Part shown: piece after piece, positions 729-63,730 of the stretch | Numbering within the stretch: position 1 is the first letter of the stretch | Layout: each line of letters opens with the position of its first letter | Source: Octopus vulgaris | Taxonomy: Eukaryota | Assembly (NCBI GenBank): GCA_951406725.2 | Contig: OX597826.1 | Coordinates: forward strand, 31,744,001 to 31,808,000 | Reading direction: 5' to 3' | Length of the DNA stretch: 64,000 nt | Position numbers and translations under genes: made by a program | The notes under the pieces: model-generated | Told to the model about the DNA's origin: nothing | The model's input: the letters and a program-made list of their open reading frames with translations, nothing else | Databases searched by the model: none

Positions 729-897
729 ATCCAAATGAAAAAATTGGTTATAGGCAGGAGGCAAATTATCAATTCTAAATAATGCCAGTCGGATATAACA
801 TAGGCAAACACTGTTACAAATATTATTCCTGACGAATATAGAGACGCGTACCAAAAACTAATAAGGGTACGTAGTTTTGAAGGCGCAGATTCCACAG
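729..897 (-). CDS. Gene A exon 5 (169 nt, VESAPSKLR...FFIW)
   Basis: tttcag acceptor, AT|gtgagt donor; lies within ORF 725..919. Confidence 0.92.
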
Positions 898-3800
898 CTG
901 AAAAGTTAAGGAAATACATAAATATAGTTTGAATAATGTTTTAACAGTAAATTTAAAATATGTATTAATATATATGATAAAACAATGACTGCATGGAGAC
1001 GGTCAAATGTTCACGTACTGTAACAGTACATTGACATGAAAACTGAATGTAGTGTAATGAGAGTAAGTTATTCTGATAAAACCTGTAGCTTTCTAAATGA
1101 GCAAATATGGGAATAAGGCAAGTCAGTTCAGTACTATATTAATTAAACTGTGGTTTCGTTTAGGACAAAATATAGCTGAGGATTTCCAGAATACCGACGT
1201 CCTGAAGAGGGAGGATTAGGTATGTGCACAATATGGCAGTGAAAGAAGAGAAATTGGTGAGTTGGTACTGTTTGAATGTAAGGGTTACGACACAGACCAT
1301 TTGTGATAAGAAGAATCCATTGAAGGGGCAGTAAATAATGCAGGAAATGAAAACAGTTATCTTTGTCTAGACTTATTGACATAGACTTCAGGTCAGACAT
1401 TTGGATGGCCGTTTTTGGATGCAGTCTAGGATGTTTTTATGTCTTGTAGTAGCATCATCCCAGACATACACCATTATGAGTTCGTGGAAGGATCGTTGTT
1501 GTTGGAACTTAAAATATTCCAAGCGCTGAAGAGTAAGGTCAGTCTTTGTGCTGCTCCTCAGTTGAGAGTGTTCGTTCTTCCACAGTAATCCTCAGTGATG
1601 TGTAATACATATAGAATTCTACGTGTGCCTATATGTGTGATACATATAGAATTTAAGGAGATTCAGAAATATCATTATTTTAAGTGGATGAATTGACTGA
1701 TGCAAACAGATGGAGCTTACTGCACCATTGGACTGCGATGACCACTGTATTACAGAAGACTATAGGATTTGTAAAGTGTGCGCAATATGGGTACCTTGGC
1801 AGCTGAAACTCAATTTGGAAGTAAAGAAAGGTGGAAGTCAGCTCTGATCTGCTTTAAGCGCTTGAAACCAACGAAGACAATTCGCATGTGGGGACAAGGG
1901 AAGAATCGTGAGCGTATCTTTATAATCTGGAAACGAATGTGCTATAACGTAAGGCGAACAATGATATTGTGCTCAGCTAATAACTTTATAAACGAACGAA
2001 GAAAACATTCTAAAGTGAATTGCAAAATGGCAAACTGTAATTTGGGTTTTCCACGATGCAAAATGAACCGTGCAAAATGAACATAGTAAGCGTGCAAAGG
2101 TGAAAAAGAATAAATCCACAACAATGAGTTGATGTATATCTAATGCCACTTGATAAAGTCCTTAAAGTGTCCCCTCAGACGAATTGACGTAAGCTTAATT
2201 AATAAACGAGGTGGGAGTGAAAAACATCATATGAGAGAATCGTGTGCGCTGATTGGATGACACTTGATAAACAATGTTATGTGTCGAGACGACTGGAGTT
2301 GCTCAGAAAGCTCAGTCCACGAAATGGTGTCACATCTGTTCTCCAAGCCACAAGAGGTTTAAGAGCCAACAGCCTGCACAGAAGGTTAAGGTGTCTATAT
2401 TTTAGGATGATATTGACGTGGTTGAACCCAAATTTCGAATCCCACTTAAAAAGATGCAGATGTATACAACTGTAGTCACTTCTTCACAGCCACTTTTACC
2501 AAGTCTTTGTCATTGTAAGAACTCAGTCCGCTTCACCTTCAGTATCCGCCAAGATTGACAATAAATAGGGATATACTTGTACATGCATAGTCATATACAT
2601 ACATACATACAAACATACATACATACATACATACATACACACACGCACACACACACATATATATATATGTATGTATGTATGTATGTATGTATGTATTTAT
2701 GTATGTATGTATGTATGTATGTATCTATCTATCTATCTATCTATCTATCTATCTATCTATCTATCTATCTATCTATCTATCTATCTATCTATCTATCTAT
2801 CTATCTATCTATCTATCTATCTATCTATCTATCTATCTAAATAAATAAATAAACACGCCCTCAACTTGGATGGTACTGCTTCTTTTAGCAGAAACAGTTG
2901 TAAGCAAAAGAAGTTGATTACATTATTCCTGTCTCATTAATATAATAATACATGGATATACAGACACAAACACATGCGCGCGCGCGCATACACACACACA
3001 CACAAACACACATGTGTAGATATAAAGTTCAAACTATACAAGTTGTAAAAAAAAAGGACTAATACAAGTTGAGGATTAGTACTCTACCTGGATTTTCAAT
3101 ATTTTAGATTTAGGACCACTTCTTCAGGAAATTTTCGGTGTAAAGTTATTGATAGCTGATATCTATTATATGGTTTGTGTGTATAATACTAACCATTGAC
3201 CCATTTTGTTAATATTTTTTAACTTGTATTGTTTGGTTACATAAAAATTACTTAGCTCACACATATCAGACAATGCTTCATGTAAAGTATAGAACTCATA
3301 TATATATATAAACCTTACTCAATGCAAAAGCGACAAGTAGAAAGGCGACGTGTCCAGCAGCTTGAATCCAAAGGAGAATGAGAAAAATAATCAAAGATGG
3401 TACGAAGATTTTGATAACTCCACTGACGACTAGGCATATGTTTGCCAATAATAAAATGGGTCTCCGACCAAATCTGTATATATAAAAATCCAGAAATATA
3501 ATAAGTGTTATTTGTTTAGGAAATTCGTGTCACATTCCATTTAGCGAGACAATAGTCATATTACATGAAAGAGGAAGCAGAAAGTTTCATTAAACATTAA
3601 AATTTCGTTGCCTGAAATGTTGGGCTTTCATATTAAAACAGAAAAATTCAACTACATACGTCATGTACAAAAATGGTAAAATCTCTTCCTTCGATGATGA
3701 ATTTTACTATAATGTGGAAATTATTGAAACCTGCAAAAGGTAAGGATTCTGGTGGAATGTACAAAACTTTAAACACAACGCGCTGGATTTATGTTAAGAT

Positions 3801-61100: not shown

Positions 61101-63730
61101 TTGAGTTTCTGAAAAGAGTGAGATGACAAAACACGCCGTTACATTTCAGTGTCGTGAGAGGTTAAGAGATACAGTGGGTTTGCAAAGACACACAACAATT
61201 CTGAAACATTATCTTTTCTCATTTTTCCACAAAAAAATTTCAACAAAATTTACCTCACAACTGTTGGAAATAATTCTGCTGATAAGAGATAAATTGAACC
61301 ATATGCCGAGGTGATTCCAAACTTTCCGAGGAGGACCAGGATCAGAGGAAACCAGAATGAACCTTAAATACAATAAAATAGAAGCTTAGACAATGCAATA
61401 TACAAGGTGCATTCCAGAGGTTTTGAGACTTTTTAGGTGAGACATTTATTAATCTCAAAGTACAAACCGCTAATCTCCATCAAAGTAACATCGTCTGACT
61501 TCGAATGTATCTCTTGTATTGCTTCTGCCACTTTCTGAAGACCCAATGGGAGACATCCAAATGGAAGGTGTCCAGGACCCTTGCAACAACCTTCAATTCA
61601 ATGTCTTCAAAACGGCTGTTCCTGAGGTTCTTCCTCAGTTTGAGCAACTACCAAACCTCACAGGAAGAAATATTTCGGCTGTAGACTGCGTAAGGGACGA
61701 TTCTGATGCCCATCTTTGTCAATTAGTTCATTAACAAACTGAAATTGTGACTAGCAGTGTTTAGCAGGTGCCTTTCAAAGTACTGTTATGGCCGTCCCCT
61801 TTAATTTCGAATAAAATTCGGCAGGTTAGCTTATTAAGTGTATAATAATAATGATTACTAAAATTACAGTAATTTTGGACAGTTATAACTTCCTCTCCTG
61901 AAAATGTCTCGGACCTTCTGGATGCCCATTGTATCTATATCATTTATAACATTCACCGTTTACTATTCATTCTGGAATCCGTAGTTCCACATTTGAGTCA
62001 CATTATCTAATATAAATATGTGTCTTCTGGCACCTAATCAAAATTTGTAAAAAAATATAATTGTTGGCTATAAAGATCGAAGGGTTTCAAATGTTCATAC
62101 CTTATATAATACAAAATCAATTAAGTATTAGTTTAATTAAAGACGAATATTTTGAGGATCTTTTGCATCATTACCGGAAAGAAATATTCAATTCAAGATT
62201 TTTAAGACAAAAAAAAATGATGGATCATGATTTTACAAAGTTATCATTTTGCTCGTCCCATTATCCAAAATTTAACGTTTAAATTATTCAGAATATAAAT
62301 AGTGTTATTAAATAAAATGGATAAAAATTGTTTAATAAAAATAATAAAGATACAACAGTTGACCAATGAACTGACAGAAGATAAAACATCACTGCTTTAC
62401 TAATTGTATGTTGGTGATTGCGCAGGAAATGTATGCAATCACGTGGTATATTTTAATCTAGTAACATTATGGTGAATACATTCTGTGATTCGATAGGAAA
62501 CTTTCTCTGCAATAGTCTTTACGATTTAATAAACTTGCATTTTAAGCTTATTTTGATAAGATAAGATACTGGTTTCAAATGTATATAAAATATAAAATAT
62601 GCGATGTACATTACCTTTGGTTACAAAATTTGACACAATGCAATTTAATCCACTGAACATCAGAAAGAAACAAATGGGCCTCCGGTGGTCAAAACGTTTA
62701 AACAAGCAGTAAGCAGCAAAAAGAGAAGGAAATTCCACGAAAGCTAATAACAGGAAGATTATATAGCGGTTTCCAGTCATGTCCACAGAATTAAGATTTA
62801 TTCCACAATATATCATACCGGCGACAAACCTGTAAAAGAATATCTTACAAATCATGTGACCAAATTTATGTTATTTACACCTGTATTGCAACTTTTGCAT
62901 TAGCATTAAAATATCAGAAAATATTTCAAACATATTTCTGTGTGAAACGCATACAGTATTATTTATATACCTACACTATGTATCTATAACAATTCGACAT
63001 ATTGTAAACTAAGATTATATCAGAGAAATCCAGCTTATCATAGTCTTCATCCAACAATAGTACAAACTTTTATATCTCCATCTACCTGAGAATCAACAGG
63101 TGTATTTAAAAAATCATTGACACCTCTAATGAGATTTGCAACTATTCCACTCATCGTATGGCTTGCCGTTATCCATACTCTGTAGACTATCAGTGGTAAT
63201 AACAGCTATTTCTTGCACATAATTATTTCGGATTGCAATAAGCATCGAACAACCCCTGGATTCATCAGAATGTACAGTTAACAATACAATCACAATGGCC
63301 AATGCCTCTCTTATCCTGTTATCCTCTTCCAAAACATTTATAACCTCCCGCTCCCTAACACTGATTATTCTAAATTAAATTCTAGATCCCCTTAAACATT
63401 TATAGTAATATTATTACACAAGCATTCAAAGAGACATGTAAAATATTAAGAGATCTTTACCAGCTAAAACAAATATTCACAGTGGTAAATGCAAGTCTCG
63501 GTCTTTTAAATAGATCAATAAAAGTATAATTGTTTTGAGCTAAGACTTTCTTCTCGGGTATATTTTCATGAAAACTGTTCTTTAATGACAATTCTTCCTC
63601 GTTATTTGGAAAAAGTTCTAATAAATCCTGATATCGTTTTTTATTTTTCTTCATTATTTTTCGAAAAAGTGCTTTTGCTTCTGTAGAACGTTTTCTTCCA
63701 ATAAGCCATCTTGGAGATTCAGGGAGAAAT
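57916..63730 (-). CDS. SLC22: SLC22-family organic solute transporter, paralogue C (3' half, exons 6-9; 5' exons lie past the right edge)
   Basis: Minus-strand exons 63461-63730, 62615-62829, 61254-61362 and 57916-58129 with GT-AG junctions. Exons 6-8 match gene B sizes (270, 215, 109) and exon 9 is 214 nt; ends [21 protein letters not shown]. Confidence 0.94.
58972..59410 (-). mobile_element. Short 3' fragment of the same R4/Dong LINE family, in gene C intron 8
   Basis: [43 protein letters not shown] matches ~14060-14200; (TTA)n tract ~58905-58971. Confidence 0.88.
60048..60338 (+). mobile_element. SINE family 1, 3' portion, in gene C intron 8
   Basis: gaaactgaaagaaacccgtcg...gcaaaagagaccgat...gcagtcaaataactgaaa. 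Confidence 0.72.
61254..61362 (-). CDS. Gene C exon 8 (109 nt)
   Basis: [36 protein letters not shown]. Confidence 0.93.
61401..61933 (-). mobile_element. Duplicated copy of the intron-7 mariner in gene C
   Basis: Reverse complement of 39515-40038 at the equivalent intronic position. Confidence 0.8.
62615..62829 (-). CDS. Gene C exon 7 (215 nt)
   Basis: FVAGMIYCG...VEFPS...NFVTK; lies within ORF 62526..62855. Confidence 0.93.
63461..63730 (-). CDS. Gene C exon 6 (270 nt)
   Basis: FLPESPRWL...DLFKRPRL...CFSW; TG|gtaaag donor. Confidence 0.93.

Follow-up and report, generated by a model that had tools for sequence, protein, structure and literature searches.

Results

The 64,000-nucleotide stretch of Octopus vulgaris DNA analysed here (the window; contig OX597826.1, G000:C13:31744001-31808000, with positions counted from its first letter unless given on the contig) lies inside a tandem array of SLC22 transporter genes, in whose young duplicates the residues assigned to the substrate pocket change at about twice the silent rate, next to an extracellular domain (ECD) that is likely kept uniform by recurrent gene conversion. 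We read 537 kb around the window, plus 120 kb of a second cluster. The array, cluster 1, comprises 17 SLC22 gene units (g01-g17) in ~0.5 Mb, and three of them reach into the window: exons 0-4 of gene A (g10) on the minus strand, all nine exons of gene B (g11) on the plus strand and exons 5-8 of gene C (g12) on the minus strand. Only B is complete inside the window, A extending leftward and C rightward; B and C are oriented tail to tail, and their introns can still be aligned.

Gene A opens with exon 0, which carries the start codon (6391..6442), followed by exon 1 (4732..5102), with an N-terminal helix, transmembrane helix 1 (TM1; pocket-equivalent codons at 5013, 5001 and 4989) and the ECD (~4965-4732), exon 2 (3823..3926; end of the ECD and TM2), exon 3 (3319..3473; TM3 and TM4, with pocket-equivalent codons at 3352-3340) and exon 4 (729..897; TM5 and TM6), all on the minus strand, as are its exons 5-8, which lie left of the window with the frame open (G000:C13:31743932-31741178). 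Gene B, on the plus strand, consists of exon 0 (23365..23416), exon 1 (26742..27115; TM1 with pocket codons at 26831, 26843 and 26855, and the likely conversion-homogenised ECD at 26879-27115), exon 2 (27247..27350), exon 3 (31044..31198; TM3 and TM4), exon 4 (34427..34595; TM5 and TM6), exon 5 (37621..37890; intracellular helices, the start of TM7 and the W354 equivalent), exon 6 (38619..38833; TM7-TM9, with the Y361 and E386 equivalents and a His at the variable 390-equivalent, 38725), exon 7 (40077..40185; TM10, with Lys at the R439 equivalent) and exon 8 (42038..42252; TM11 and TM12, with Arg at the D474 equivalent, 42072). Of gene C, on the minus strand, the window holds exon 5 (63461..63730), exon 6 (62615..62829; TM7-TM9), which differs from B at 15 residues, among them the pocket-equivalent changes Y384C and H412L, exon 7 (61254..61362), with A465T at the T443 equivalent (61312), and an intact exon 8 (57916..58129); its exons 0-4 continue right of the window to G000:C13:31818038, in an open frame with canonical splice sites.

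A named O. vulgaris protein, P0127, is identical to B across exons 1-7. In exon 8 of B, an A-run at ~42197-42203 has seven A's versus six in C, and in this assembly the frame shifts after TM12, so that the C-terminal tail would be lost; the O. sinensis orthologue of B, P0125, is intact with its full tail, and the extra A is either an assembly error or an allele. Contigs from four runs (drawn from four studies and not recorded as RNA) join exons 5, 6 and 7: intron 5 is removed in 4/4 and intron 6 in 3/4, both with GT-AG ends. These contigs have B's letters at the listed differences, and B is therefore spliced. Other paralogues are represented by shorter spliced pieces.

Across cluster 1, 11 of the 17 units have exons 1-8 with an open frame and canonical splice sites, three units carry a single lesion (g06 and B, a frameshift after TM12; g07, an AA acceptor), three are pseudogenes (g13, g15 and g16), and orphan exons lie between the gene units. 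The g07 acceptor, at exon 2 (G000:C13:31673720), reads AA rather than AG; the rest of its frame is intact and its O. sinensis orthologue, P0002, is full length. Exon-1 matches fall in two places, 20/32 inside C13:31.47-31.95 Mb and the other 12 in the second cluster (G000:C13:75.3-76.3 Mb), where g18 and g21, genes of the young subfamily that we also built, are mixed with older paralogues whose pocket is variable too. The young pairs B/C, g02/g04 and g03/g05 were considered as possible haplotype duplicates and rejected as such, since most of their introns are 2-14% apart; for g09/g10 and g15/g16, with introns 0-3.5% apart, haplotype duplication is possible. Introns of old pairs can no longer be aligned.

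By sequence, the array proteins place as SLC22 members outside all three vertebrate subfamilies (OCT, OCTN and OAT). Their nearest solved relatives are SLC22 proteins in 26/27 PDB sequence matches and in all of the top 48 Foldseek rows, with OCTN2 the best match in both sequence and fold, followed by URAT1, OAT1 and OCT1-3. P0125 and P0002 match PF00083 and PF07690 above cut-off, as members of the major facilitator superfamily do; single exons gave no Pfam match, and full-length named relatives were used in their place. The best full-length family, NCBIfam TIGR00898 (2A0119 cation transport protein), scores 334-356 bits, below its curated cut-off of 550.75. The predicted model of P0002 has 12 long helices, at a mean predicted local distance difference test score (pLDDT) of 65.5. 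The ~86-residue, Cys-containing loop between TM1 and TM2, modelled at low confidence, and residues 288-363 align to the extracellular and intracellular domains of OCTN2 and the OCTs.

A quick maximum-likelihood tree with 52 proteins places all 16 genes that we built, together with three O. bimaculoides proteins, in a single clade (SH-aLRT, the Shimodaira-Hasegawa-like approximate likelihood ratio test, 100), nested in a larger clade (support 100) of named octopod proteins and one unnamed protein, whose sister is a gastropod clade. An earlier first-pass annotation of this DNA had proposed a lineage-specific expansion, and the octopus-specific clade bears this out. Since the clade includes O. 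bimaculoides proteins, the array is older than the O. bimaculoides split; the B/C duplication appears to postdate it (support 83), and O. sinensis also has C, in the form of the partial model P0005. With exon 1 of gene A as query, 18/18 matches were Octopus proteins. No squid or cuttlefish protein appeared among the 120 listed of 445 matches, which is weak evidence, and a 50%-representative search added no further named lineage.

The pocket was mapped with 20 pocket or ion-site residues, given as OCT1/OCTN1 equivalents and taken from the available parts of PMC10567722, PMC10940649, PMC13669368 and bioRxiv 2023.03.15.532610. Sites were placed through HMMER alignments to solved relatives, and alignment to a reptile SLC22A4 gave the same placement at all 18 sites that it listed. 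Across the 14 readable cluster-1 genes the gate is nearly invariant: W354 is kept in 14/14, Y361 in 13/14 and E386 in 13/14 (one Asp), Lys stands at the R439 site in 14/14, and aromatics occupy 446 and 450. This fixed pattern in the C-terminal lobe is common to gastropods, crustaceans and amphioxus and is therefore likely ancestral. The wall of the N-terminal lobe (N-lobe; 32, 36, 213, 214, 216, 217, 241 and 244) and positions 390, 443 and 447 show 3-7 residues each. At the D474 site, 11/14 genes, A, B and C included, have Arg and 3/14 have Cys. Cys at this site, which corresponds to R469 of OCTN1 and R466 of OAT1, is encoded by exon 8 of g02, g04 and g06, in two clades, and occurs in the O. 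bimaculoides protein P0006; it would abolish the positive pole of the pocket.

These residues bear on the likely cargo. The acidic pocket of the OCTs, D474-K214 with E386, is absent, the K214 site being L/M/I/V/T in 14/14. The two poles of the OCTN pocket, E381 and R469, are matched by Glu in 14/14 (Asp in one) and Arg in 11/14, again including A, B and C; in OCTN1 this Glu and Arg pair forms a zwitterion pocket, and the OAT residue at the D474 site is also Arg, as described in the available part of PMC13669368. The OCTN Na+ set S28/N32/Q180/N210 is complete in 0/14 genes (N32 in 0/14, Q180 in one, N210 in two, S28 in one). OAT1 K382, in TM8, serves alpha-ketoglutarate exchange by binding the dicarboxylate (PMC10643130, in its available part); its equivalent, position 412 as mapped by the OCT1 offset, is Y/L/N/C/F/H/S across the 14 genes and never Lys. 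The Arg at the D474 site thus indicates zwitterions or anions despite the automatic database label "organic cation transporter", which is probably wrong on charge.

Measured on the window itself, the contrasts reported by the first-pass annotation proved exact. Genes A and B share 8/23 residues in TM1 (A 5034-4966, minus strand; B 26810-26878), with 11 substitutions and one gap over the following 80 columns of the loop, and 2/13 residues in the second half of TM4, or 3/14 with the preceding Ala (A 3358-3320, minus strand; B 31159-31197). The B-C differences do cluster in TM7-TM8 (residues 364-421 in P0002 numbering), which holds 17 of the 46 in total (scan test p=1e-4) and 17 of the 29 in exons inside the window. 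The wider statement that the paralogues differ mainly in pore-lining helices captured part of the signal and was overstated, since only 78/169 A-B differences lie in the seven cavity helices (189/530 sites), and TM10 (20/28 identical) and TM11 (21/28) are more conserved than the peripheral TM3 (10/19), TM9 (13/20) and TM12 (12/18). Variation is found in TM1, TM4, TM5, TM8 and two TM10 positions, while the gate residues of TM7, TM8, TM10 and TM11 are nearly fixed.

Rates by site class sharpen this picture. The ratio of replacement to silent rates (omega) was fitted for the 14 readable cluster-1 genes on nine segment trees, leaving out g13, g15, g16 and all genes of cluster 2. The whole-tree omega was 0.89 (0.70-1.11) in the pocket, 0.47 in the rest of the cavity helices, 0.31 in other TMs, 0.38 in the intracellular domain and 0.24 in the ECD; the N-lobe pocket reached 1.11, and the pocket exceeded helix-matched permutations (p=0.002). 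Per helix, TM8, TM1, TM5 and TM4 were highest (0.57-0.72), and TM7, TM10 and TM11 lay at 0.29-0.39. Fast sites thus map to pocket positions rather than to TM helices at large, and to this extent the suggestion of different pockets on a shared scaffold stands. They comprise positions 49, 52-53, 56, 218, 222, 244, 248, 252, 405, 411-412, 414, 465 and 469. Within four young clades (10 genes, ECD excluded), pocket omega was 2.14 (1.46-3.09; p=0.001), with each clade at 1.7-2.8; it ranged over 1.96-2.37 when single sites were left out, was stable to dropping any clade, and was reached by 0/3000 helix-matched random sets. When rates were left free for each clade and exon, or taken from the cavity helices alone, it remained at 1.73-2.03 (p=0.003-0.033), whether or not double hits were allowed, and silent divergence of young pairs was not raised in the cavity helices (0.045 versus 0.048 overall). 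The first-pass annotation had conceded that its proposal would fall if no nonsynonymous excess survived correction for conversion; in young duplicates the excess persists.

Orthologues give a mixed view of pocket stability. B differs from its O. bimaculoides orthologue P0133 at 1/20 pocket sites and 47/523 overall, and C has four derived pocket residues, at positions 222, 384, 412 and 465, where B equals P0133. Stasis of the pocket after divergence is true for B and not in general, as described below. The O. sinensis orthologues have 0/20 pocket differences in six pairs, with 1-7 differences overall, and are too close to test stasis.

To judge how unusual this variability is, we compared mean pairwise identities overall, at the nine N-lobe pocket sites and in the ECD, in control sets that were hand-picked from the same 120 listed of 445 matches and are probably mostly orthologues. 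The 14 array genes stand at 0.70, 0.27 and 0.89, versus 0.66/0.85/0.44 for 14 gastropod proteins, 0.75/0.76/0.51 for eight crustacean proteins and 0.89/0.98/0.86 for 12 reptile SLC22A4 proteins, in which the 20 sites are 99% identical. Thirteen amphioxus paralogues (Branchiostoma, P0049-P0097), a possible parallel expansion, stand at 0.62/0.37/0.62, with an N-lobe pocket that varies on a fixed C-lobe gate, and nine older octopod paralogues at 0.55/0.43/0.58, so that both paralogue sets repeat the octopus pattern in weaker form. SLC22 paralogues elsewhere thus diverge in the pocket too; what sets the array apart is the extent of this divergence, together with the uniform loop.

The uniform loop appears to have a history of its own. 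Silent divergence (dS) is 0.29 in the ECD versus 0.71 in TM1 of the same exon, and silent and replacement divergence share one map. In four independent old pairs, 16/128 four-fold sites of the ECD differ (0.125) versus 127/362 elsewhere (0.351; p=5e-7), while four young pairs are not lower there (9/131 versus 30/575); over all same-residue third positions, young pairs are in fact higher in the ECD (20/296 versus 45/1368, p=0.008). Constraint at the DNA level is ruled out as the cause of the low ECD silent divergence, because it would depress young pairs as well, and recurrent gene conversion is the likely explanation. Of the longest identical runs between clades, 94/112 are centred in the ECD, reaching 103 nt, and the ECD tree is short and discordant with the gene tree. 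In the distant pair g18/g21, 19/78 residues of the loop differ, versus 6/79 in equally diverged cluster-1 pairs. Low silent divergence in old but not young pairs, long identical tracts and discordant trees all point to conversion, which, aided by purifying selection, likely keeps the ECD uniform. Grouping by species was followed at the protein level, in three O. bimaculoides proteins: all share P117/E135, but g17 has a loop signature of its own in both species. A conserved loop next to a variable helix can thus be a conversion effect, and the TM1-versus-loop contrast, which the first-pass annotation had taken as a sign of pocket change on a shared scaffold, has two causes, the likely conversion of the loop, to which it owes much, and the fast pocket sites.

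Several further features lie in and around the array. An orphan, degenerate exon-4 copy with a stop and a frameshift, nearest in sequence to the g14 type, lies at 55718..55888 (minus strand), and an orphan but intact exon 0-1 cassette of g14 type at G000:C13:31839602-31841531. The O. sinensis RefSeq isoforms P0001 and P0123 have exons 2-8 in common and different exon 0-1 cassettes, exon 1 of P0001 being a g08-type TM1 joined to a g07-type loop; this could be first-exon swapping of TM1, conversion within the exon or an annotation chimera. The equivalent of window positions 26371-26448 is an extra in-frame exon in the O. sinensis isoform P0007, and a similar stretch lies in the first intron of C; no clear GT donor was seen. 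Broken pieces of non-long-terminal-repeat retrotransposons, with weak RVT_1 and zf-RVT matches below cut-off, occupy 12334-14500 (plus strand), 10503-11009 (minus) and 58905-59410 (minus), and a broken Tc5/pogo-like DNA transposon with HTH_Tnp_Tc5 above cut-off lies at 18933-19826 (minus). The region 48000-51100 is richer in G+C and has short frames resembling a decayed long interspersed nuclear element on the minus strand; two of these frames were scanned without a Pfam match.

Discussion

On balance we think it probable that this locus is a tandem birth-and-death SLC22 array in which selection re-tunes the N-lobe pocket, with the gate nearly fixed and the ECD converted, and in which the copies carry different zwitterions or anions. 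After a tandem duplication, one copy would replace several cavity-wall residues under selection, which would shift its cargo; the parts replaced are predicted to be the N-lobe wall and side pockets, and the gate and the charge pair powering alternating access would be retained. Conversion would repeatedly re-copy the ECD part of the longest exon, and tracts running across pocket exons would be purged. To judge from the conserved residues, transport probably proceeds by alternating access through the W354/Y361/E386/K(R)439 gate, and the pocket may have two poles like that of OCTN1/2, formed by the Glu and by the Arg of the D474 site; the copies presumably differ in substrates. The cargo would be organic zwitterions or anions, without a fixed Na+ site. 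Vertebrate SLC22 proteins serve metabolite uptake and excretion in excretory or digestive epithelia, and by this analogy the likeliest role would be to take up and excrete metabolites, both dietary and endogenous, in such epithelia.

A number of observations weigh against this reading: (i) The codon models were run with our own GY94 code, with fixed kappa and F3x4, and not with codeml. The unguided tests, of the site-model kind that the first-pass annotation had recommended with recombination control, were significant on a single tree and lost with per-exon trees plus double substitutions: M8 versus M8a gave p=2e-4 with a single tree, 0.01 with nine segment trees and 0.22 once double hits were allowed, M2a versus M1a gave 0.005, 0.49 and 1.0, and M7/M8 was significant on one tree and not robust. 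A double-hit rate of 0.15 gave a far poorer fit than rates of 0 or 0.05 and was set aside. (ii) The whole-tree pocket omega is not above 1, and the restriction to young clades was picked after this weak result, as the list of pocket sites was settled after the alignment had been viewed. Plain counting in four young pairs (14.5/171 versus 78.5/1622) is borderline at p=0.049. (iii) The cavity-facing residues are predicted through alignment to solved relatives, next to a P0002 model of the mean pLDDT given above. Shifting the site list by +1, +3 and +4 gave omegas of 2.01, 1.6 and 1.72, versus ~0.9 at -2 and -4; since the +1 and +4 shifts stay high, the mapping resolves a helix face and not single residues. 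Helical-moment periodicity of variability was found in 0/12 helices at p<0.05. (iv) C changes residues that are fixed elsewhere (S380G, Y384C and N400I), and no C-type contig over exon 6 was listed in the four runs, which were picked by B's exon 1, so that this is not evidence of silence of C. (v) The pocket is not always stable, since g18 differs from its O. bimaculoides orthologue at 7/20 pocket sites and g17 at 3/20.

Much of this would also be expected if redundant cavity residues drifted neutrally under relaxed constraint, the copies overlapping in function (as dosage or tissue expression) and many becoming pseudogenes. The whole-tree values for the pocket and its N-lobe part are both compatible with 1, the array holds three pseudogenes, three lesioned genes and many orphan exons, the unguided tests are not robust, and the altered fixed sites and missing contigs of C fit as well. 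We nevertheless regard drift as unlikely, though deserving of serious attention, given that young-clade omega exceeds 1 under every control, that individual codons have changed more than once among sister copies (codon 218: GAT, ATT, AAT; codon 249: TTT, ACT, TAT) and that B's pocket has hardly changed since the lineage parted from O. bimaculoides. It is also conceivable, but in our judgement very unlikely, that the signal is an artefact of mosaic exchange among paralogues, lost or unassembled ones included, and of double substitutions, and that the pocket is not under selection. Conversion is clearly active in the ECD, B-C intron divergence spans 0.015 to 0.137, about half of the young-pair differences have both states in other clades, and double hits make the unguided signal vanish; converted tracts, however, would carry silent changes, whereas in young pairs the pocket codons show 14.5 replacement differences against 1.5 silent ones, and omega is still 1.81 (p=0.015) with free rates per clade and exon and double hits.

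The array might instead serve chemical sensing or secretion, in places such as sucker epithelium or the salivary gland, its proteins being transceptors or secretory carriers of a specialised kind. Pocket variation combined with a fixed gate and a uniform outer domain would resemble a receptor repertoire, and the subfamily is octopus-specific among the named matches listed; but the transport gate residues are retained, and amphioxus paralogues vary in the pocket more mildly (0.37 versus 0.62 overall), so the pattern may be generic to SLC22 expansions, and we consider this role highly improbable. A broader form of the idea, which we hold to be quite unlikely, is a receptor-like SLC22 repertoire with a shared gate, an outer domain standardised by conversion, a wall tuned by selection and possibly TM1 cassettes swapped by alternative first exons, which would absorb, sequester or sense particular dietary zwitterions and toxins.

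Selection on the N-lobe pocket, the account that we favour, would matter beyond octopuses, where the array is a candidate chemical adaptation. SLC22 substrate selectivity is central to drug transport, and the known pockets are conserved within subfamilies. The array is a natural mutagenesis series of 14 readable genes, with pairs more than 90% identical that carry 3-6 pocket differences on a fixed gate (B/C, g02/g04 and g03/g05/g06), and it renders the rules of selectivity directly testable. At the level of titles in the open-licence literature, we found no paper on this cluster when looking for cephalopod or invertebrate SLC22 expansions, and none on SLC22 selection with conversion among 15 listed of 341. 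Tandem SLC22 expansions are already known in rodents, and the available part of PMC4633038 does not mention molluscs.

The array shares traits with several known systems and differs from each of them: (i) Like OCTN1/OCTN2 (SLC22A4/A5), most octopus copies keep the Glu/Arg pair (E381/R469; PMC13669368, available part), W349 and Y356; unlike them, they are without the full Na+ set of S28, N32, Q180 and N210, vary at Y211 and Q207 and are not orthologues. (ii) With OAT1/URAT1 they have in common the Arg at R466, the Lys at K431 and the Tyr-Tyr at Y353/Y354 (offset from OCT1; available parts of PMC10643130 and PMC13669368), whereas seven different residues fill the K382 position of OAT1. (iii) The OCT1-3 equivalents of W354, Y361 and E386 and the layout of 12 TMs, ECD and intracellular helices are present in octopus, but D474 is Arg or Cys, K214 is hydrophobic or Thr, and W217 and Q241 are absent; bioRxiv 2023.03.15.532610 (available part) describes a highly conserved OCT cavity, while the N-lobe wall is the least conserved class in octopus. 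(iv) The rodent Slc22a26-30 cluster is likewise a lineage-specific tandem SLC22 cluster, although the available part of PMC4633038 reports neither pocket selection nor loop conversion there. (v) As in the red/green opsins, for which homogenised segments beside divergent selected ones have been described as a "peak of divergence" (PMC3924837, available part), homogenised segments stand beside divergent, probably selected ones, a likeness that may extend to the protocadherin clusters, named there only as a cited reference. In contrast to both, what is homogenised in octopus is coding sequence, namely the ECD part of the longest exon, the introns of old pairs can no longer be aligned, and the arrangement runs through 17 genes.

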